A program made the translations under genes and the position numbers. Positions 8,892 to 46,704 of a stretch of 64,000 nucleotides of DNA are shown here, in pieces. The DNA is from Escherichia coli (lineage in GTDB: Bacteria > Pseudomonadota > Gammaproteobacteria > Enterobacterales > Enterobacteriaceae): the NCBI RefSeq assembly GCF_044324875.1, contig NZ_CP172185.1. One strand, given 5' to 3'. Every line of letters begins with the position of its first letter. Positions within the stretch are counted from its first letter, which is position 1. Under the pieces are notes generated by a model that was not told the DNA's origin, searched no databases, and saw only the letters and a list, made by a program, of their open reading frames with translations.

Positions 8892-9029
8892 TCTTAATCT
8901 CCTCATCATTCGCGGGCAAAAGTTACTAAGAGTGAGCCTGGATGGCAAGCCGGAATTGATGATCCTCGACTCAGACATTAGACAAGGTTATGCTCTGTAA
9001 AAAAGTTATTACAAAAAGGAATAGATAAT

Positions 9030-10706: not shown

Positions 10707-10792
10707 ACATTTAAGCTGATGACCACCGCGCTTTTTATTGACCATTTTGCACGCAAACTGGAAAACCTGGCGTCGTCATCTATTCTTAAAGG

Positions 10793-10895
10793 GCAAGGCA
10801 ACTAAGCCTGCATTAATGCCAACTTTTAGCGCACGGCTCTCTCCCAAGAGCCATTTCCCTGGACCGAATACAGGAATCGTGTTCGGTCTCTTTTT
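10793..10895 (+). ncRNA. sdsR: SdsR (RyeB) Hfq-dependent sRNA; antisense RyeA/SraC expected on the opposite strand across the same locus
   Basis: Recognised sequence GCAAGGCAACTAAGCCTGCATTAATGCCAACTTTTAGCGCACGGCTCTCTCCCAAGAGCCATTTCCCTGGACCGAATACAGGAATCGTGTTCGGTCTCTTTTT, ending in a terminator hairpin plus U-tract; located in the yebY-pphA intergenic region as in K-12. Confidence 0.7.
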
Positions 10896-11029
10896 ATCTG
10901 TTAAAAGCCAGAAGCATTCCCTTCGCTGACTTTATAGTCAACCATAACACACACTCTACTGTCTGAGTCCAGCGTTTTTTAACATTCTTGTTAAGATTAT
11001 GTGATCTTTAGCGCGGGAGGAAAATATTG

Positions 11030-19182: not shown

Positions 19183-21231
19183 ATGAACATGTTTTTTAGG
19201 CTTACCGCGTTAGCTGGCCTGCTTGCAATAGCAGGCCAGACCTTCGCTGTAGAAGATATCACGCGTGCTGATCAAATTCCGGTATTAAAGGAAGAGACGC
19301 AGCATGCGACGGTGAGTGAGCGCGTAACGTCGCGCTTCACCCGTTCTCATTATCGCCAGTTCGACCTCGATCAGGCATTTTCGGCCAAAATCTTTGACCG
19401 CTACCTGAATCTGCTCGATTACAGCCACAACGTGCTGCTGGCAAGCGATGTTGAACAGTTCGCGAAAAAGAAAACCGAGTTAGGCGATGAACTGCGTTCA
19501 GGAAAACTCGACGTTTTCTACGATCTCTACAATTTGGCGCAAAAGCGCCGTTTTGAGCGTTACCAGTACGCTTTGTCGGTACTGGAAAAGCCGATGGATT
19601 TTACCGGCAACGACACTTATAACCTTGACCGCAGCAAAGCGCCATGGCCGAAAAACGAGGCTGAGTTGAACGCGCTGTGGGACAGTAAAGTCAAATTCGA
19701 CGAGTTAAGCCTGAAGCTGACAGGAAAAACGGATAAAGAAATTCGTGAAACCCTGACTCGCCGCTACAAATTTGCCATTCGTCGTCTGGCGCAAACCAAC
19801 AGCGAAGATGTTTTCTCGCTGGCAATGACGGCGTTTGCACGTGAAATCGACCCGCATACCAACTATCTTTCCCCGCGTAATACCGAACAGTTCAACACTG
19901 AAATGAGTTTGTCGCTGGAAGGTATTGGCGCAGTGCTGCAAATGGATGATGACTACACCGTTATCAATTCGATGGTGGCAGGTGGCCCGGCAGCGAAGAG
20001 TAAAGCTATCAGCGTTGGTGACAAAATTGTCGGTGTTGGTCAAACAGGCAAGCCGATGGTTGACGTGATTGGCTGGCGTCTTGATGATGTGGTTGCCTTA
20101 ATTAAAGGGCCGAAGGGCAGTAAAGTTCGTCTGGAAATTTTACCTGCTGGTAAAGGGACCAAGACCCGTACTGTAACGTTGACCCGTGAACGTATTCGCC
20201 TCGAAGACCGCGCGGTTAAAATGTCGGTGAAGACCGTCGGTAAAGAAAAAGTCGGCGTGCTGGATATTCCGGGCTTCTATGTGGGTTTGACAGACGATGT
20301 CAAAGTGCAGTTGCAGAAACTGGAAAAACAGAATGTCAGCAGTGTCATCATCGACCTGCGTAGCAATGGCGGTGGGGCGTTGACCGAAGCGGTATCGCTC
20401 TCAGGTCTGTTCATTCCATCTGGTCCGATTGTTCAGGTCCGTGATAACAACGGTAAAGTTCGTGAAGACAGCGATACCGACGGGCAGGTTTTCTATAAAG
20501 GCCCGCTGGTGGTGCTGGTTGACCGCTTCAGTGCTTCGGCTTCAGAAATCTTTGCTGCTGCCATGCAGGATTACGGTCGTGCGCTGGTTGTGGGTGAACC
20601 GACGTTTGGTAAAGGCACCGTTCAGCAATACCGTTCATTGAACCGTATTTACGATCAGATGTTACGTCCTGAATGGCCAGCGCTGGGTTCTGTGCAGTAC
20701 ACGATCCAGAAATTCTATCGCGTTAACGGCGGCAGTACGCAACGTAAAGGCGTAACGCCAGACATCATCATGCCGACGGGTAATGAAGAAACGGAAACCG
20801 GTGAGAAATTCGAAGATAACGCGCTGCCGTGGGATAGCATCGATGCCGCGACCTATGTGAAATCGGGAGATTTGACGGCCTTTGGACTGGAGCTGCTGAA
20901 GGAACATAATGCGCGTATCGCGAAAGATCCTGAGTTCCAGAACATCATGAAGGATATCGCGCGCTTCAACGCTATGAAGGACAAGCGCAATATCGTTTCT
21001 CTGAATTACGCTGTGCGTGAGAAAGAGAATAATGAAGATGATGCGACGCGTCTGGCGCGTTTGAACGAACGCTTTAAACGCGAAGGTAAACCGGAGTTGA
21101 AGAAACTGGATGATCTACCGAAAGATTACCAGGAGCCGGATCCTTATCTGGATGAGACGGTGAATATCGCACTCGATCTGGCGAAGCTTGAAAAAGCCAG
21201 ACCCGCGGAACAACCCGCTCCCGTCAAGTAA
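19183..21231 (+). CDS. prc: Tail-specific (C-terminal processing) protease
   Basis: 682 aa from MNMFFRLTALAGLLAIAGQTFA; the ORF track starts at an upstream TTG. Confidence 0.92.
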   Translation: MNMFFRLTALAGLLAIAGQTFAVEDITRADQIPVLKEETQHATVSERVTSRFTRSHYRQFDLDQAFSAKIFDRYLNLLDYSHNVLLASDVEQFAKKKTELGDELRSGKLDVFYDLYNLAQKRRFERYQYALSVLEKPMDFTGNDTYNLDRSKAPWPKNEAELNALWDSKVKFDELSLKLTGKTDKEIRETLTRRYKFAIRRLAQTNSEDVFSLAMTAFAREIDPHTNYLSPRNTEQFNTEMSLSLEGIGAVLQMDDDYTVINSMVAGGPAAKSKAISVGDKIVGVGQTGKPMVDVIGWRLDDVVALIKGPKGSKVRLEILPAGKGTKTRTVTLTRERIRLEDRAVKMSVKTVGKEKVGVLDIPGFYVGLTDDVKVQLQKLEKQNVSSVIIDLRSNGGGALTEAVSLSGLFIPSGPIVQVRDNNGKVREDSDTDGQVFYKGPLVVLVDRFSASASEIFAAAMQDYGRALVVGEPTFGKGTVQQYRSLNRIYDQMLRPEWPALGSVQYTIQKFYRVNGGSTQRKGVTPDIIMPTGNEETETGEKFEDNALPWDSIDAATYVKSGDLTAFGLELLKEHNARIAKDPEFQNIMKDIARFNAMKDKRNIVSLNYAVREKENNEDDATRLARLNERFKREGKPELKKLDDLPKDYQEPDPYLDETVNIALDLAKLEKARPAEQPAPVK

Positions 21232-21236
21232 TATCA

Positions 21237-21267
21237 ATCAGGCACAAGAAATTGTGCCTGATTTTTT
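21237..21267 (+). terminator. Intrinsic terminator after prc
   Basis: atcaggcacaa-gaa-attgtgcctgat followed by ttttt. Confidence 0.5.
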
Positions 21268-21345
21268 AACAGCGGCAAGATGCCGTAAATCAGATGCTAC
21301 AAAATGTAAAGTTGTGTCTTTCTGGTGACTTACGCACTATCCAGA

Positions 21346-21372
21346 CTTGAAAATAGTCGCGTAACCCATACG
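21346..21372 (+). promoter_or_regulatory. Candidate sigma-32 heat-shock promoter of htpX
   Basis: CTTGAAA, a 12-13 bp spacer, then CCCATACGA; resembles the sigma-32 -35 CTTGAAA and -10 CCCCATnT consensus. Confidence 0.45.
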
Positions 21373-21422
21373 ATGTGGGTATCGCATATTGCGTTTTGTT
21401 AAACTGAGGTAAAAAGAAAATT

Positions 21423-22304
21423 ATGATGCGAATCGCGCTCTTCCTGCTAACGAACCTGGCCGTAATGGTCGTTTTCGGGCTGGTACTGAGCCTGACAGGG
21501 ATACAGTCGAGCAGCGTTCAGGGGCTGATGATCATGGCCTTGCTGTTCGGTTTTGGTGGTTCCTTCGTTTCGCTTCTGATGTCCAAATGGATGGCATTAC
21601 GATCTGTTGGCGGGGAAGTGATCGAGCAACCGCGTAACGAAAGGGAACGTTGGCTGGTCAATACTGTAGCAACCCAGGCTCGTCAGGCGGGGATCGCTAT
21701 GCCGCAAGTGGCTATCTACCATGCGCCGGACATCAACGCTTTTGCAACCGGTGCGCGCCGTGATGCCTCTCTGGTTGCTGTCAGCACCGGTTTGCTGCAG
21801 AACATGAGCCCGGATGAAGCCGAGGCGGTAATTGCTCACGAAATCAGCCACATCGCCAATGGTGATATGGTCACCATGACGCTGATTCAGGGCGTGGTGA
21901 ACACCTTCGTTATCTTTATTTCCCGTATTCTGGCGCAGCTTGCCGCGGGTTTTATGGGCGGAAATCGTGATGAAGGTGAAGAGAGCAACGGCAACCCGCT
22001 GATCTACTTTGCGGTTGCAACGGTTCTGGAACTGGTGTTTGGTATTCTGGCGAGCATTATCACCATGTGGTTCTCGCGTCATCGTGAATTCCACGCCGAT
22101 GCGGGTTCAGCAAAACTGGTTGGTCGCGAGAAAATGATTGCTGCATTGCAGCGCCTGAAAACCAGCTATGAACCGCAAGAAGCAACCAGCATGATGGCTT
22201 TCTGCATTAACGGTAAGTCGAAATCGCTCAGTGAGTTGTTCATGACTCACCCGCCGCTGGATAAACGTATTGAAGCTCTGCGTACGGGTGAATACCTGAA
22301 GTAA
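21423..22304 (+). CDS. htpX: Membrane zinc metalloprotease HtpX
   Basis: 293 aa; HEISH zinc-binding motif. Confidence 0.93.
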
Positions 22305-22317
22305 TATGAAGTAAATA

Positions 22318-22352
22318 CTAAAAAGCGCGTCCTGATCGACGCGCTTTTTTTG
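22318..22352 (+). terminator. Intrinsic terminator after htpX
   Basis: aaaaagcgcgtc-ctgat-cgacgcgc followed by ttttttt. Confidence 0.55.
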
Positions 22353-23068
22353 TGCACAGAAAACCCCCAGCTAGGCTGGGGGTTCCGGAAAGCTTTCAGC
22401 TTTGAGCCAGTTATTAAAACCCCTTTTGATTTGTTAAAACACCTTGCGGTCTGGCAACTGCAAGTGTCAAACAAGTGTCAAACAAGAAATCAAAAGGGGG
22501 TCCCAATGGGGAACGAAAAGAGCTTAGCGCACACCCGATGGAACTGTAAATATCACATAGTATTTGCGCCAAAATACCGAAGACAGGTGTTCTACAGAGA
22601 GAAGCGTAGAGCAATAGGCTGTATTTTGAGAAAGCTGTGTGAGTGGAAAAGTGTACGGATTCTGGAAGCTGAATGCTGTGCAGATCATATCCATATGCTT
22701 GTGGAGATCCCGCCCAAAATGAGCGTATCAGGCTTTATGGGATATCTGAAAGGGAAAAGCAGTCTGATGCTTTACGAGCAGTTTGGTGATTTGAAATTCA
22801 AATACAGGAACAGGGAGTTCTGGTGCAGAGGGTATTACGTCGATACGGTGGGTAAGAACACGGCGAAGATACAGGATTACATAAAGCACCAGCTTGAAGA
22901 GGATAAAATGGGAGAGCAGTTATCGATTCCCTATCCGGGCAGCCCGTTTACGGGCCGTAAGTAACGAAGTTGGATGCAAATGTCAGATCGTGTGCGCCTG
23001 TTAGGGCGCGGCTGGTAAGAGAGCCTTATAGGCGCATTTGAAAAACCTCCGGCTATGCCGGAGGATAT
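22353..23068 (+). mobile_element. IS200-like insertion sequence (about 0.7 kb; boundaries approximate)
   Basis: Contains an IS200-type tnpA; 5' region has a perfect hairpin (cccccagc-tagg-gctggggg, 22364-22382) and a long stem pairing ccccttttgatttgtt with aacaagaaatcaaaaggggg that would sequester the RBS; inserted between the htpX terminator and the yebQ stop. Confidence 0.6.
22506..22964 (+). CDS. tnpA: IS200 TnpA (HUH Y1 transposase)
   Basis: 152 aa from MGNEKSLAHTRWNCKYHIVFAPKYRRQVFY; HUH motif DHIHMLVEIPPK; near-identical to Salmonella IS200 TnpA as I recall it. Confidence 0.88.
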   Translation: MGNEKSLAHTRWNCKYHIVFAPKYRRQVFYREKRRAIGCILRKLCEWKSVRILEAECCADHIHMLVEIPPKMSVSGFMGYLKGKSSLMLYEQFGDLKFKYRNREFWCRGYYVDTVGKNTAKIQDYIKHQLEEDKMGEQLSIPYPGSPFTGRK

Positions 23069-23071
23069 TTA

Positions 23072-24445
23072 TTATGCCCAGGCTCGTGGCTGAGTGATAC
23101 GTAAACCACTGACACAGGCAGCAATTACTGCCAGAATAGCCGCAGCCATCAGCGAGACGTGCGTACCATTATCACCAAACTGATTTAGCATCAGCGCCAC
23201 CAGCGCCGCGCCACTACTCTGACCCAATAGACGAGCCGTCCCTAACATGCCACTGGCCCCACCGCTACGTTCGCGCGGAGCGGAGGTTATAATGGTGTGG
23301 TTATTGGGTGACTGGAATAAGCCAAATCCAGCGCCACATAAGATCATCGGCCAGATAATATTGATATCCGCAGGTGACGCGGGCAGCAGAACCAGGGAAA
23401 AAAGCCCCGCAGCCATGATGAACAACCCTAAAGCACCCAGCAATCCTGCATGTACGCGTTCAATCAAATAGCCTGCCAGCGGAGCCATCACCATCGTTGC
23501 TAACGGCCACGGTGTCAGAAGTAAACCTGTTTCGACTTCACTACGCCCGAGCACGGTTTGCAGGTAAAAGGGCAGGGAAACCATTGCCAGCATTTGTGCG
23601 CAGAAAGAGCAAACAGATGTGCAAATAGAAAGTGAAAACAGCGGGATACGCAGTAAATCCACCGGTAGCAGCGGTACGGGAAGAGAAAGCTGGCGGCGAA
23701 TAAAGAAAATACCAACGACAACCATTACCACCAGTTCCGCACCAATCAATGTCAGCGATTGCCCCTGAGCGAAACCACTCAACGCAGTGATAAGCAGGCC
23801 GAAGGTTAACGCGTTCATCACGGCGCTGGGCAGGTCGAAACGGGGTTTACTGGCGCGAGAACCATTGGGTGGCAGAAAACGCATTGCCAGAAGCAGGGCG
23901 ATAATACCCAACGGTACGTTGATTAAAAATAACCATTTCCAGGATGCGATGGAGAGGATTGCTGCAGCAATTGTCGGCCCGGCAGCAGAAGAAACGGCAA
24001 CAATAAACGAGTTTATGCCCATCCCTCTACCCAGAAAACGTTGTGGATAGATCAGGCGGATAAGTGCGGTATTAACGCTCATCAACGCTGCACCGCCGAA
24101 ACCTTGTATGACACGCGCAAGGGTGAGCATTTGCAGCGAATCAGAAAGGGCGCAGAACAGTGAAGACAACAGAAAAACGACCAGACCGCATTTATAAATA
24201 CGTCGATAGCCAAACATATCGCCCAGAAACGAAAACGAGAGCAGGGAGATGACAATGGCGATTTGATAGGCGTTCACTACCCAGATGGAACTGGCTGGCG
24301 TGGCATGAAGGTCCGTGGCGATTGTTGGCAGGGCGACGTTGGCGATTGCGCCGTCAAGGACAGCCATCGAAATACCAATCACAATGGTTAATATCGCACC
24401 GTATCGCTGGGGCAATGGCAGGCCGTCGGCCTGAACTTTTGGCAT
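23072..24445 (-). CDS. yebQ: MFS transporter YebQ
   Basis: 457 aa from MPKVQADGLPLPQRYGAILTIVIG; 14-TM drug/H+ antiporter-like. The ORF track extends 37 codons upstream. Confidence 0.85.
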   Translation of the reverse strand: MPKVQADGLPLPQRYGAILTIVIGISMAVLDGAIANVALPTIATDLHATPASSIWVVNAYQIAIVISLLSFSFLGDMFGYRRIYKCGLVVFLLSSLFCALSDSLQMLTLARVIQGFGGAALMSVNTALIRLIYPQRFLGRGMGINSFIVAVSSAAGPTIAAAILSIASWKWLFLINVPLGIIALLLAMRFLPPNGSRASKPRFDLPSAVMNALTFGLLITALSGFAQGQSLTLIGAELVVMVVVGIFFIRRQLSLPVPLLPVDLLRIPLFSLSICTSVCSFCAQMLAMVSLPFYLQTVLGRSEVETGLLLTPWPLATMVMAPLAGYLIERVHAGLLGALGLFIMAAGLFSLVLLPASPADINIIWPMILCGAGFGLFQSPNNHTIITSAPRERSGGASGMLGTARLLGQSSGAALVALMLNQFGDNGTHVSLMAAAILAVIAACVSGLRITQPRAWA

Positions 24446-24621
24446 AGGAATTTTATATCTTTGGTGAATAATCAACAGGGGTATGATTCTAGCACTGATA
24501 TTCACGGTGGATGTCGCAGAATTGTAACTAACCGGCAAAAGATGGATTGCGACCACCCAGGTGCGAAATTATAATAAAAAACAGTTCTGATTTTTATAAA
24601 ACACTCGCAATGAGGTGATAA

Positions 24622-25413
24622 ATGGCTAACGCAGATCTGGATAAACAGCCTGATTCTGTATCTTCCGTGCTAAAAGTTTTTGGCATTTTGCAGGCGCTGG
24701 GTGAAGAGCGCGAAATAGGGATAACCGAGCTGTCGCAGCGCGTCATGATGTCAAAAAGCACCGTTTATCGCTTTTTACAGACCATGAAAACCTTAGGTTA
24801 TGTGGCGCAGGAAGGGGAGTCGGAGAAATATTCCCTGACCCTGAAATTGTTTGAACTGGGCGCTCGCGCGTTACAAAACGTCGATTTAATTCGTAGCGCA
24901 GATATCCAGATGCGTGAGATCTCCCGCCTGACCAAAGAAACTATCCACCTCGGCGCACTGGACGAAGACAGTATTGTTTACATTCACAAAATTGACTCTA
25001 TGTACAATTTGCGCATGTATTCACGGATTGGGCGTCGTAATCCGCTGTACAGCACCGCGATTGGTAAGGTACTGCTGGCATGGCGCGATCGCGATGAAGT
25101 GAAGCAAATTCTTGAGGGCGTGGAGTATAAACGCAGTACCGAGCGGACCATCACCAGTACAGAAGCGTTATTACCCGTTCTGGACCAGGTGCGTGAGCAG
25201 GGGTATGGCGAAGATAACGAAGAGCAGGAAGAAGGACTGCGTTGCATTGCGGTTCCGGTATTTGATCGCTTTGGCGTGGTCATTGCCGGTCTTAGCATCT
25301 CCTTCCCGACGTTGCGTTTCTCTGAAGAGCGTTTACAGGAATATGTCGCAATGTTGCATACCGCGGCGCGCAAAATTTCTGCCCAAATGGGTTATCACGA
25401 CTATCCATTCTGA
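24622..25413 (+). CDS. kdgR: IclR-family repressor of 2-keto-3-deoxygluconate/pectin catabolism
   Basis: 263 aa; IclR helix-turn-helix near the N-terminus. Confidence 0.92.
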   Translation: MANADLDKQPDSVSSVLKVFGILQALGEEREIGITELSQRVMMSKSTVYRFLQTMKTLGYVAQEGESEKYSLTLKLFELGARALQNVDLIRSADIQMREISRLTKETIHLGALDEDSIVYIHKIDSMYNLRMYSRIGRRNPLYSTAIGKVLLAWRDRDEVKQILEGVEYKRSTERTITSTEALLPVLDQVREQGYGEDNEEQEEGLRCIAVPVFDRFGVVIAGLSISFPTLRFSEERLQEYVAMLHTAARKISAQMGYHDYPF

Positions 25414-26460: not shown

Positions 26461-27129
26461 TCCTTCCTCAATCTTGAGTAACCCCGTCGTTGAAGGGTTA
26501 CTCAATTCATCCTGATTATACGCACTGTCATGGTGCAACTGCTTCAAATTAAAACTCTGGTCTGACTTCAAATAATTATCATATTATTTATTTGCGTAAC
26601 GGGATATCAGAAAAAGATATTTAGCCCATTAATTTATTAGGATGTTTACATCGGATTTGTGATTAAGCGTGGTATTATTTATTAGCGAAACGTTTCTCTC
26701 TTGATTTTTTTGCGCATTTATCAATTTTTCTTATTTTAAATTTACAATACCTTTGGCGATTGACTTCTCTTTGGGGTGATCTATAGCCGTTAACTGACTG
26801 TTTTATGAGAAAAAGTGATATAACTTTTTATTCATTGCATAGCAGAAAATGTGATATTGCACGCACTATGTAATAACTTCTCCCACTGGCCTGGAACAAC
26901 TGAACTTATTGAACTATGTTAGAAAATACGTCAGTTTAAGTATCTGCCTGAACTGGCAAGGTTAAGCACAATGATATATCGGCGCGTATTCCGTTGCATA
27001 AGTGTGCAAAAAAAGTGGAAGACGTATCGAGATTTGTGCGTCTGATCGAGACATGTTTAAAAATGGCTTGCCATAATTAACGTTGTATGTGATAACAGAT
27101 TTCGGGTTAAACGAGGTACAGTTCTGTTT

Positions 27130-27273
27130 ATGTGTGGCATTTTCAGTAAAGAAGTCCTGAGTAAACACGTTGACGTTGAATACCGCTTCTCTGCCGAGCC
27201 TTATATTGGTGCCTCATGCAGTAATGTGTCAGTTTTATCTATGTTATGCCTGCGGGCGAAGAAAACAATCTAA
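27130..27273 (+). CDS. yobF: Small protein YobF (47 aa; missed by the ORF track)
   Basis: ATG at 27130; translation [47 protein letters not shown]; ends 12 bp before cspC. Confidence 0.75.
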
Positions 27274-27285
27274 GGAATTTTTCAA

Positions 27286-27495
27286 ATGGCAAAGATTAAA
27301 GGTCAGGTTAAGTGGTTCAACGAGTCTAAAGGTTTTGGCTTCATTACTCCGGCTGATGGCAGCAAAGACGTGTTCGTACACTTCTCTGCTATCCAGGGTA
27401 ATGGCTTCAAAACTCTGGCTGAAGGTCAGAACGTTGAGTTCGAAATTCAGGACGGTCAGAAAGGTCCGGCAGCTGTTAACGTAACAGCTATCTGA
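27286..27495 (+). CDS. cspC: Cold-shock-domain protein CspC
   Basis: 69 aa [40 protein letters not shown]1/RNP2 motifs. Confidence 0.93.
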
Positions 27496-27660
27496 TCGAA
27501 TCCACTGATCTGAAGTGTGAATACGCTTCAATCTCGCTATAAAGCCTCGTCGAATGCGAGGCTTTTTACTTTGCTTTATCTTCGCTCCAGTCGTTCGGAT
27601 ATTTGCCCGCCGCGTGATTCGCGTTACACTTGCGGCCTTTAGTGTCCTGCCGGAGTTGTC

Positions 27661-44973: not shown

Positions 44974-46659
44974 TTGAAGAAGGTTTGGCTTAACCGTTAT
45001 CCCGCGGACGTTCCGACGGAGATCAACCCTGACCGTTATCAATCTCTGGTAGATATGTTTGAGCAGTCGGTCGCGCGCTACGCCGATCAGCCTGCGTTTG
45101 TGAATATGGGGGAGGTGATGACCTTCCGCAAGCTGGAAGAACGCAGTCGCGCGTTTGCCGCTTATTTGCAACAAGGGTTGGGGCTGAAGAAAGGCGATCG
45201 CGTTGCGTTGATGATGCCTAATTTATTGCAATATCCGGTGGCGCTGTTTGGCATTTTGCGTGCCGGGATGATTGTCGTAAACGTTAACCCGTTGTATACC
45301 CCGCGTGAACTTGAGCATCAGCTTAACGATAGCGGCGCATCGGCGATTGTTATCGTGTCTAACTTTGCCCACACTCTGGAAAAAGTGGTTGATAAAACCG
45401 CCGTTCAGCACGTAATTCTGACCCGTATGGGCGATCAGCTATCTACGGCAAAAGGCACGGTAGTCAATTTCGTTGTTAAATACATCAAGCGTCTGGTGCC
45501 GAAATACCATCTGCCAGATGCCATTTCATTTCGTAGCGCCCTGCACAACGGCTACCGGATGCAGTACGTCAAACCCGAACTGGTGCCGGAAGATTTAGCT
45601 TTCCTGCAATACACCGGCGGCACCACAGGTGTGGCGAAAGGCGCGATGCTGACTCACCGCAATATGCTGGCGAACCTGGAACAGGTTAACGCGACCTATG
45701 GTCCGCTGTTGCATCCGGGCAAAGAGCTGGTGGTGACGGCGCTGCCGCTGTATCACATTTTTGCACTGACCATTAACTGCCTGCTGTTTATCGAACTGGG
45801 TGGGCAGAACCTGCTTATCACTAACCCGCGCGATATTCCAGGGTTGGTAAAAGAGTTAGCGAAATATCCGTTTACCGCTATCACTGGCGTTAACACCTTG
45901 TTCAATGCGTTGCTGAACAATAAAGAGTTCCAGCAGCTGGATTTCTCCAGTCTGCATCTTTCCGCAGGCGGAGGGATGCCTGTTCAGCAAGTGGTGGCAG
46001 AACGTTGGGTGAAACTGACTGGACAGTATCTGCTGGAAGGTTATGGCCTGACCGAGTGTGCGCCGCTGGTCAGCGTTAACCCGTATGATATTGATTATCA
46101 TAGTGGTAGCATCGGTTTGCCGGTGCCGTCGACGGAAGCCAAACTGGTGGATGACGACGACAACGAAGTACCACCGGGTCAACCGGGTGAGCTTTGTGTC
46201 AAAGGACCGCAGGTGATGCTGGGTTACTGGCAGCGTCCGGATGCTACCGATGAGATCATCAAAAATGGCTGGTTACACACCGGCGACATCGCGGTGATGG
46301 ATGAAGAAGGATTCCTGCGCATTGTCGATCGTAAAAAAGACATGATTCTGGTTTCCGGTTTTAACGTCTATCCCAACGAGATTGAAGATGTCGTCATGCA
46401 GCATCCTGGAGTACAGGAAGTCGCGGCTGTTGGCGTACCTTCCGGCTCCAGTGGTGAAGCGGTGAAAATCTTCGTAGTGAAAAAAGATCCATCGCTTACC
46501 GAAGAGTCACTGGTGACTTTTTGCCGCCGTCAGCTCACGGGCTACAAAGTACCGAAGCTGGTGGAGTTTCGTGATGAGTTACCGAAATCTAACGTCGGAA
46601 AAATTTTGCGACGAGAATTACGTGACGAAGCGCGCGGCAAAGTGGACAATAAAGCCTGA
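44974..46659 (+). CDS. fadD: Long-chain fatty acyl-CoA synthetase
   Basis: 561 aa from a TTG start ([25 protein letters not shown]); AMP-binding motif [11 protein letters not shown]. Confidence 0.92.
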
Positions 46660-46678
46660 GCGTTAAGTCAGTCGTCAG

Positions 46679-46704
46679 ACGCCGGTTAATCCGGCGTTTT
46701 TTTT
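46679..46704 (+). terminator. Intrinsic terminator after fadD
   Basis: cgccgg-ttaat-ccggcg followed by tttttttt. Confidence 0.55.

Follow-up and report, generated by a model that had tools for sequence, protein, structure and literature searches.

A complete IS200C behind the htpX/yebQ terminator of Escherichia coli, with a private 11-bp tandem duplication in its tnpA leader

A structured, IS200-like element separates htpX from yebQ in the 64-kb stretch of Escherichia coli DNA that has been analysed here (hereafter, the window), and the question that it raises has two parts: what the element is and how it sits between its two neighbours, and whether the 11-bp tandem repeat in its leader alters the control of its transposase. 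The answer that we hold to be very probable is that the window carries a vertically inherited, essentially dormant copy of IS200C with its full silencing apparatus, in which a recent and neutral-looking duplication, private to this copy, has arisen. The functional statements made below for this copy are transferred, by analogy, from the Salmonella IS200, which has been studied in both Salmonella and E. coli.

The element is a complete IS200C (IS200/IS605 family, IS200 group) that occupies positions 22352-23073 on the + strand, i.e. 722 bp; it is already known, being an ordinary copy of a catalogued insertion sequence. Its boundaries have been set by the empty site of K-12, by copies at the same site and by independent copies at galU, mukB, icd, carB and gnd; a sequence-only reading of the locus had come close with 22353-23068, and the exact insert follows from the K-12 site and the same-site copies. 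The 722 bp correspond to the 712 bp of a standard copy with the 11-bp duplication added and one T lost from the right tip. By the usual ISfinder rule, two copies belong to one insertion sequence above 95% amino acid and 90% nucleotide identity; near-identity was judged here against the copies that RefSeq/PGAP names IS200C, with which the window copy shares 98.3-98.4% of its nucleotides (full length, 11-bp gap counted). Nucleotide identity is 91% to the Salmonella enterica IS200F and 86% to the Yersinia pestis IS1541A, and the assignment to IS200, first made without any database search, is thus borne out.

At 722 bp, with tnpA and no tnpB, the element has the composition of the IS200 group (about 0.7 kb, tnpA only): tnpA is the sole open reading frame with a family match, the remaining ones being short overlapping frames. 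There are no terminal inverted repeats; a subterminal hairpin is located at either end (22362-22384 on the left, 23046-23064 on the right), and the two hairpins are direct repeats of one another (78% over 23 nt), not inverted ones. The 64-kb window holds no second IS200 copy, whereas IS1541A reaches high copy numbers in Yersinia (PMC5435999).

The tnpA gene (22506-22964, + strand) is intact and encodes a Y1 HUH single-strand DNA transposase of 152 amino acids, with the motif H61-I-H63 and Tyr125; the Y125F mutant of TnpA is catalytically dead (PMC4513863). The protein matches the NCBIfam model NF033573 (transpos_IS200) with E 6.7e-43 and 145.9 bits (cut-off 55), as well as the solved relatives 2ec2, 2f4f, 2a6m and 2xm3 of the PDB, with E-values from 1e-22 to 4e-16, which include the TnpA proteins of IS608 and ISDra2. 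Its DNA is identical to the gene that encodes WP_000526113.1, and its amino acid identity is 99% to the common IS200C protein WP_000526135.1, 93% to IS1541A and 95% to IS200F, the last value agreeing with the near-identity to the Salmonella TnpA that had been noted in the sequence-only reading. IS608 (Helicobacter pylori) and ISDra2 (Deinococcus) belong to the same fold family (E ~1e-18 and 4e-16) and have in common with the window copy the subterminal hairpins, the lack of inverted terminal repeats and of target duplication, and the insertion 3' of a short motif (PMC2806898); they also carry tnpB, whereas the window copy has tnpA only.

The point of insertion is given by K-12, which is free of the element at the htpX-yebQ position, a comparison on which the sequence-only reading had staked its claim of an insertion. 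The K-12 empty site reads TTTTTTT/ATGCCC (the slash marks the insertion point), with the same hairpin upstream and with the yebQ stop codon overlapping the T-tract, and it is plainly interrupted by IS200C with no target-site duplication, as in the rest of the family. The hairpin belongs to the intrinsic terminator shared by htpX and yebQ (22320-22351, + strand), composed of A5, a 7-bp GC-rich core stem and T7; the target is the T7 tract (22345-22351), and the element, located directly 3' of the tract, lies between it and the yebQ stop codon. IS200C would have entered here without target duplication, directly behind the T-tract of this bidirectional terminator, a pattern that would fit the single-strand "peel and paste" mode of transposition, where a short target motif borders the left end. 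The target motif of IS608 is TTAC. That of ISDra2 is a pentanucleotide (PMC2806898), and the common left flank of IS200C, a T-run of at least TTT, is unlike either. All other independent IS200C copies examined follow a T-run, with TTT directly left of GTGCACAG and an unrelated right flank, and for five of them the sequence before the T-run is clearly a terminator hairpin belonging to a gene of the same orientation; IS1541A has the same T-run target context, and a large survey reports an enrichment of terminator-like sequences immediately upstream of elements of the IS200/IS605 family (bioRxiv 10.1101/2025.07.22.666184). The copy in the window is a clean example of IS200C landing just past an intrinsic terminator's T-tract.

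At its right end, the element does not stop a few base pairs short of the yebQ stop codon, as had been supposed, but contributes to it: in the TAA codon (23072-23074, - strand), base 1 (23074) is original DNA, and the two final T of the insertion sequence supply bases 2 and 3 (23073 and 23072). The coding sequence of yebQ is unchanged, being annotated with 1374 nt in K-12 and in strains that bear the element, because the T-rich right tip rebuilds the stop codon. The right end (23041-23073; -21.6 kcal/mol, z -4.05) consists of the 8-bp GC-rich hairpin at 23046-23064 and the tip ATATTTATT; its - strand sequence, CCTCCGGCATAGCCGGAGG TTTTTC, is a terminator-like arrangement that starts 7 nt past the yebQ stop codon. 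This hairpin and its T5 probably replace the displaced original terminator of yebQ, while htpX keeps its own. The insertion has, in this way, split a bidirectional terminator, rebuilt the stop codon of a neighbour and supplied a hairpin and T-run in replacement, the role of the latter as a terminator being probable.

The right tip is ATT, one T short of the ATTT of independent copies at other loci; tnpA and both ends are otherwise intact. We have rejected the view that the missing T is a private change or an error, since the junction occurs with 100% identity in many genomes, and the ATT form is common to the same-site copies of ST69-like strains. Of 5426 complete E. coli genomes, 163 (about 3%) carry each of the two junctions, the insertion being annotated there as IS200C; LF82, NRG 857C and an ST69 strain are among them. 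Because these strains, which we take to represent distant phylogroups, are occupied at the same site, purely vertical descent of a single insertion is to be regarded as presumptive. The same-site copies agree with the window copy in insertion point, orientation, ends and the 152-residue TnpA, and the IS DNA of strain Z1323HEC0462 differs from it solely by the duplication and one T. With the same insertion already annotated in 163 complete genomes, the main value of the present description is a correct annotation; in addition, the occupancy of the site and the form of the right tip (ATT or ATTT) mark lineages.

The silencing apparatus is located in the leader, where two hairpins had been singled out as typical of IS200, a perfect one after the htpX terminator and a long one sequestering the ribosome-binding site; both are present and match published features, and the terminator, the stem-loop, the art200 5' ends and the Hfq footprint described for IS200 can all be placed in the window to within 1 nt. 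The first, AACCCCCAGC-TAG-GCTGGGGGTT (22362-22384; 10 bp, loop of 3, -18.7 kcal/mol), starts 10 nt after the T-tract of the htpX terminator and is invariant among the E. coli, Salmonella and Yersinia copies. By its position it corresponds to nt 12-34 of IS200, a bidirectional terminator that blocks impinging transcription (PMC4513863), and it would terminate incoming read-through from htpX; by analogy with IS608, it is likely to be also the hairpin that TnpA recognises. The second (22420-22499, + strand) is formed by a lower stem, with 16-nt arms (22420-22435 and 22484-22499) that are 94% complementary, and an upper stem-loop (22439-22464), and matches the published stem-loop at nt 69-138 by which the Shine-Dalgarno sequence is occluded (PMC4513863). 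In the window, most of the Shine-Dalgarno sequence AAGGGGGT (22494-22501) lies within the stem: in the predicted minimum free energy and centroid structures, 22420-22432 pairs with 22487-22499, so that 22494-22499 would be hidden from the ribosome with or without the duplication.

The leader matches the Rfam model RF01405 (STnc490) over its entire length (1-124 of 124) with 125.8 bits (gathering score 56) and E 3.1e-26, the 11 nt appearing as an insertion. The window copy and IS200F show no differences in the left-end hairpin, in the lower stem and apical stem-loop, or in the core of the Shine-Dalgarno sequence; IS1541A has the same hairpins and departs further in the stretch from the stop codon to the right end.

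Two RNAs are expected from the leader by homology with Salmonella, where the tnpA leader, art200/STnc490 and the 5'tnpA small RNA have been described (Ellis et al. 2015 and 2017; Mol Microbiol 2025). The Salmonella tnpA transcript starts near IS nt 40, and processing leaves the first ~111-125 nt of it (PMC4513863, PMC12594629); the predicted 5'tnpA RNA of the window (22390-22526, + strand) would be 11 nt longer than the standard one (about 122-136 nt). The predicted antisense RNA art200 (22414-22515, - strand), whose published form binds Hfq and starts inside the opening codons of tnpA, would begin at 22514/22515, corresponding to the published 5' ends at IS nt 153/154 (PMC4513863), and end near 22414 after a hairpin and U-run, giving about 101 nt against 90 nt in the standard form. 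The sequence at the published 5' ends and the hairpin with its U-run are conserved, and the long hairpin is kept in the minus-strand fold, followed by UUUU. We have placed both RNAs by the published coordinates because art200 is antisense in the literature, while the hairpin-rich STnc490 model scores the tnpA-sense strand; for the same reasons, the + strand match was rejected as a sense small RNA gene. A putative art200 promoter (22521-22550, - strand) can be read with TTTACA as -35 (22550-22545), an 18-nt spacer and TAAGCT as -10 (22526-22521); it was not called by a simple promoter scan, and it agrees with the published description of a good -35 and an almost unrecognisable -10 (PMC4513863).

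The convergent art200 gene may constitute one layer of silencing over the leader hairpin, and an Hfq site just upstream of the Shine-Dalgarno sequence may constitute a further one: the Hfq footprint on the IS200 tnpA leader, -33 to -17 relative to the AUG (PMC4513863), maps to 22473-22489, where the window copy reads AAGTGTCAAAC and IS200F reads AAAAGTTCAAC, a difference at a few positions. The dormancy that we ascribe to the window copy would be in keeping with the reported near-immobility of IS200 (PMC4513863, PMC12594629).

It is in this region that the window copy is unlike every other IS200C copy compared. The tandem duplication CAAGTGTCAAA (22461-22486, + strand) comprises the units 22461-22471 and 22472-22482, followed by CAAG; with 2.4 copies and 100% match, it reaches a TRF score of 52 and ranks first among the tandem repeats of the 64-kb window. 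The repeat had been noticed in the sequence-only reading and is real, but it is private to this copy and not a typical feature of IS200: none of the other IS200 copies examined, IS200F included, has the 11 bp, which are thus inserted with respect to all of them. A 44-nt query specific to the duplication junction has no match in the complete E. coli genomes, a collection that does not include the source genome of the window (closest match 99.1% over 24 kb), while the unduplicated 44-nt control is found at 8954 places in 2207 of these genomes; the missing match is, therefore, not a masking artefact. With a 77-nt query spanning the repeat, the 100% matches consist of two overlapping pieces over only 66 bases of the record, and exact scans for the junction found none in metagenome contigs or in species-representative genomes. 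The duplication is, so far, unique among the approximately 8950 IS200C leaders of the complete E. coli genomes and in the other collections. Its most likely origin is replication slippage, involving two CAAG tetramers located 11 bp apart in the parental sequence; the CAAG directly after the 11-mer is the signature of such an event.

Within the leader hairpin, the duplication falls in the internal loop, on its 3' side, and the unit that it copies, -34 to -24 relative to the AUG, takes in 10 nt of the Hfq footprint, which has been mapped to 17 nt; as a recent private mutation, it would have enlarged the internal loop and partly doubled the A-rich Hfq site, leaving intact the lower stem that occludes the Shine-Dalgarno site, the upper stem of the kissing loop and the art200 terminator. 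The predicted fold of the leader has -42.8 kcal/mol with the duplication and -43.9 kcal/mol without it, on the same lower stem, and that of the art200 strand -34.3 and -35.4 kcal/mol, respectively; the predicted cost is about 1 kcal/mol, with the stem over the ribosome site remaining closed; a bulge of 11 nt at this place in the Hfq footprint may also act through kinetics or protein binding, to which these minimum free energies are blind. Most probably, the duplication has no effect or makes repression slightly stronger.

The alternative that fares best, though we judge it improbable, is that the duplication is functionally consequential, altering the control of tnpA by Hfq or art200, or creating copy-specific alleles of 5'tnpA and art200 that would pair imperfectly with the RNAs of the other IS200C copies of the genome. 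In its favour, the -34 to -24 unit falls within the -33 to -17 footprint; the duplication adds a second AAC-AAG stretch that, in our own reading, resembles the (ARN)n motif; the centroid structure loses pairs that flank the upper stem; and a trans-acting art200 is plausible because related genomes carry 3-7 or more places that match IS200C. It is weakened by the same folds, where the hiding lower stem, the kissing terminal loops and the art200 terminator are unchanged for a predicted loss of about 1 kcal/mol, and by the duplication being present on both strands, so that complementarity in cis is preserved. Moreover, in earlier work the stem-loop was the dominant repressor, the effect of hfq disruption being almost 20-fold smaller than that of stem disruption (PMC4513863), and a single private occurrence among approximately 8950 copies bears no sign of selection. 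A still stronger form, in which the lengthened RNAs (about 122-136 nt for 5'tnpA and about 101 nt for art200) and the doubled partial Hfq site make up a distinct riboregulatory allele with different Hfq binding or with escape from art200 pairing, is very improbable; such a copy would be de-repressed for transposase or act as a stronger Hfq sponge. A private duplication within a mapped Hfq footprint could offer a ready natural allele for dissecting the control of IS200 tnpA by Hfq and the stem-loop.

Somewhat less credible than a consequential duplication is the co-option of the element by its host, as the terminator of yebQ and an insulator between the two convergent genes or as a source of a regulatory small RNA. 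Both ends and the reading frame are intact in 163 genomes, from strains that we take to belong to different phylogroups, and the right-end hairpin with T5 is, on the - strand, a good match to an intrinsic terminator just past the yebQ stop codon; the original bidirectional terminator, however, suffices in 97% of complete E. coli genomes, and the window copy is indistinguishable from IS200C copies at other loci. The known targets of 5'tnpA, which belong to SPI-1, are absent from E. coli, and we know of no E. coli target. Action in trans is known from Salmonella only, where 5'tnpA regulates the invF and PinT networks (PMC5435999, PMC12594629); because these targets are Salmonella-specific, the trans-regulatory role cannot simply be carried over to E. 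coli, and a small RNA role of the leader in the source strain would be an extrapolation. Persistence needs no selection, since IS200 is notoriously immobile (PMC4513863, PMC12594629), and the dormant, inherited copy remains our preferred reading.

The last alternative, that the duplication and perhaps the missing right-tip T are sequencing or assembly artefacts, is very unlikely: the duplication is absent from three large collections, and repeats could confuse an assembly because IS200C is multi-copy in related genomes, but a perfect tandem duplication of 11 bp with a 4-bp direct repeat at its borders is a classic product of replication slippage, and no sequencing platform is known to us to make such errors typically, while the right-tip variant ATATTTATT/ATGCCC is found with 100% identity in many independent complete genomes.

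Unrelated to the duplication, weak Rfam matches to STnc420, STnc40 and Atu_C9 (22284-22354) and to Ysr202 (23041-23116) were set aside, as they score below the gathering thresholds and merely reflect terminator hairpins. The 3' non-coding part of the element contains a conserved inverted repeat, TGCGCCTGTTAGG ... CCTTATAGGCGCA (22993-23036), which is nearly invariant in IS200C, IS200F and IS1541A.

We have read the sequence and listed the ORFs of window positions 21000-24800, where htpX (21423-22304, plus strand) is followed by its terminator (22320-22351; five A, a GC-rich stem and seven T, recovered by inverted-repeat search, terminator scan and folding), by a tnpA ORF of 152 aa (22506-22964, plus strand) and by the end of yebQ on the minus strand, whose stop codon reads TTA on the plus strand (23072-23074). 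In K-12 MG1655, which lacks the element, htpX and yebQ are convergent with a gap of 45 bp, and their junction reads GCGCTTTTTTT followed directly by ATGCCC; at the same point of the window, the same seven T lead into GTGCACAG...GGAGGATATTTATT and then into ATGCCC. Because the empty site and the window share these two flanks, the insert is delimited to 22352-23073, i.e. 722 bp without a target duplication; the sequence-only reading, which had proposed an IS200-like element at 22353-23068, was right about its location, while its exact limits are corrected by the K-12 empty site. The same reading had let the element end a few bp short of the yebQ stop; instead, the element overlaps this codon, since two of its bases are now the final two T of the insert, next to the same A that formerly followed the final two T of the terminator tract. 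The YebQ protein is unaltered by the insertion, and the annotated length of yebQ is 1374 nt in K-12 and IS-bearing strains alike.

The element is an ordinary insertion of the already catalogued IS200C. The interpretation given in the sequence-only reading is thereby supported, apart from the boundaries, the overlap with the yebQ stop and the status of the tandem repeat, which is no usual part of IS200. Its best E. coli matches, annotated as 'IS200/IS605-like element IS200C family transposase', are 98.1-98.4% identical over 821 bp including flanks, and an 11-bp gap makes up nearly the whole shortfall from 100%; the plasmid search returned an E. coli IS200C at 98.3% nucleotide identity, Salmonella IS200F at 91.0% and Y. 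pestis IS1541A at 86.3%. The tnpA ORF matches NCBIfam NF033573 (IS200/IS605 family transposase, E 6.7e-43), and its product matches the solved Y1 HUH transposases of Sulfolobus, IS608 and ISDra2 (E 1e-22 to 4e-16), carrying H61-I-H63 and Tyr125; Ellis et al. used a TnpA Y125F mutant as their catalytically dead control (PMC4513863). The protein is 99% identical to the common IS200C TnpA (sole substitution, C39 for S39), 95% to that of IS200F, so that the near-identity to the Salmonella protein claimed in the sequence-only reading is fairly stated, and 93% to that of IS1541A.

In other E. coli records, independent copies of IS200C are located downstream of galU, mukB, icd, carB and gnd, with a sixth on a plasmid; every one inspected starts with GTGCACAG right behind a T-run, the right flanks are unrelated, and the five genes named are co-oriented, with the copy clearly behind their terminator hairpin. 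The T-runs on the left and the unrelated right flanks suggest that the target motif comprises at least TTT and that terminator T-tracts are strongly preferred. A large IS survey reports that the strongest enrichment of terminator-like sequences is immediately upstream of IS200/IS605 elements (bioRxiv 10.1101/2025.07.22.666184). Downstream of icd in E. coli A1_136 (L006:900-1916), two copies lie head to tail, GGAGGATATTTTTT being joined to GTGCACAG, and the right tip of the first is shorter than the usual ATATTTATTT; one copy could have inserted into the other's T-run, or the pair could be a tandem dimer.

At the htpX site, the left junction (200-bp query) reaches a coverage of at least 80% in 163 of the 5426 complete RefSeq E. 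coli genomes, a collection that does not include the source genome of the window, and the right junction (141-bp query) likewise in 163; the occupied strains include LF82, NRG 857C and an ST69 strain. The nearest genomes, ST69-like and IS-bearing, are 99.1% identical over 24 kb (window 10000-34000). The same-site copy of strain 2017C-4173W12 (L002:2600-3310) has flanks and ends identical to those of the window and eight substitutions inside tnpA, through which it encodes the common IS200C protein WP_000526135.1; this resembles the outcome of gene conversion among IS200C copies.

With regard to the neighbouring genes, htpX should retain its hairpin and T7, its read-through would run into the left-end terminator of the IS, and yebQ would no longer have the old bidirectional terminator directly behind it. 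Seven nt past the yebQ stop, the minus strand reads CCTCCGGCATAGCCGGAGG TTTTTC, a site that is called by the terminator scan (fold -21.6 kcal/mol, z = -4.05) and is where the yebQ mRNA now probably ends.

In the tnpA leader, the inverted-repeat search has located a perfect 10-bp hairpin at the left end (22362-22384), ten nt past the htpX terminator, and a long imperfect hairpin (arms 22420-22435 and 22484-22499), whose 3' arm spans most of the Shine-Dalgarno sequence AAGGGGGT (22494-22501); the perfect hairpin, the sequestering stem and a tandem repeat had been noticed from the sequence, and all were found, so that the observation is correct in every item. In Salmonella IS200 (Ellis et al. 2015, PMC4513863), nt 12-34 form a bidirectional terminator, tnpA starts at about nt 40, the SD-sequestering stem-loop spans nt 69-138, the antisense RNA art200 (formerly STnc490, 90 nt) has its 5' ends at nt 153/154, and Hfq footprints on tnpA at -33 to -17 relative to the AUG; with nt 1 set at 22351 or 22352 and the 11 extra bases allowed for, these map by homology to 22362-22384, about 22390, 22420-22499, 22514/22515 and 22473-22489, respectively. 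Across the aligned E. coli, Salmonella and Yersinia leaders, there is no variation in either hairpin, in the apical stem-loop or in the SD core AAAAGGGG. The Rfam STnc490 model covers 22362-22496 at full length (125.8 bits; gathering score 56), the 11 nt appearing as an insertion within the 3' half of the hairpin. This RF01405 match is on the tnpA-sense strand and takes in the left-end hairpin, and thus disagrees in strand and extent with the antisense RNA of the literature. Elsewhere in the window, gathering-level Rfam matches mark features to be expected of the E. coli core genome: SraC/RyeA and SdsR/RyeB, a pair that overlaps (10755-10899), a cspA-type thermoregulator 5'UTR (27110-27570) and sroD (46618-46703).

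The tandem repeat of CAAGTGTCAAA at 22461-22486 (Tandem Repeats Finder: period 11, 2.4 copies, 100% matches, score 52) ranks top in the 64-kb window; it exists as first described, but it is not typical of IS200, as the other copies inspected have the 11-mer once. All other inspected copies read CTG-CAAGTGTCAAA-CAAG-AAATC, and therefore the parental sequence has CAAG twice, 11 bp apart, which would be a classic substrate for slipped-strand duplication. A junction-specific 44-nt query found the duplication in none of the 5426 genomes, a negative result that is real, since the unduplicated 44-mer is present in 2207 genomes, at 8954 places; no exact match was obtained from metagenome contigs or from species-representative genomes either. 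As far as these public data show, the duplicated allele is thus private to the window's genome.

A measurable regulatory effect of the duplication is very improbable. The duplicated unit (-34 to -24) copies 10 of the 17 nucleotides footprinted by Hfq and adds a second AAC-AAG stretch, and the extra bases enlarge an internal loop of the predicted fold. The lower stem of 13+2 bp and the apical stem-loop are unchanged; the predicted free energy of the leader is -42.8 kcal/mol in the duplicated form vs -43.9 in the single-unit form, and that of the art200 strand, which retains its hairpin and the following UUUU, is -34.3 vs -35.4. The duplication is most likely neutral, because the stem-loop is the dominant repressor of tnpA, the effect of Hfq loss being almost 20-fold smaller (PMC4513863), and because the known regions of the leader-derived 5'tnpA RNA that pair with invF and PinT are its unstructured 5' and 3' parts, outside the hairpin (PMC12594629). 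It is a small curiosity, with its position in the Hfq footprint as the one noteworthy point.

The right end is conserved in the alignment too: an inverted repeat (22993-23036) is followed by a hairpin (23046-23064) and by the tip ATATTTATT(T). The inverted repeat, located in the 3' non-coding region (13 bp, 85% complementary), is near-invariant among IS200C, IS200F and IS1541A; we have found no described function for it. The tip of the window, ATATTTATT followed by ATGCCC, has one T fewer than two same-site and four independent copies; an error is ruled out by the 100% identical junction of many ST69-like genomes, and the shortened tip is a lineage polymorphism.
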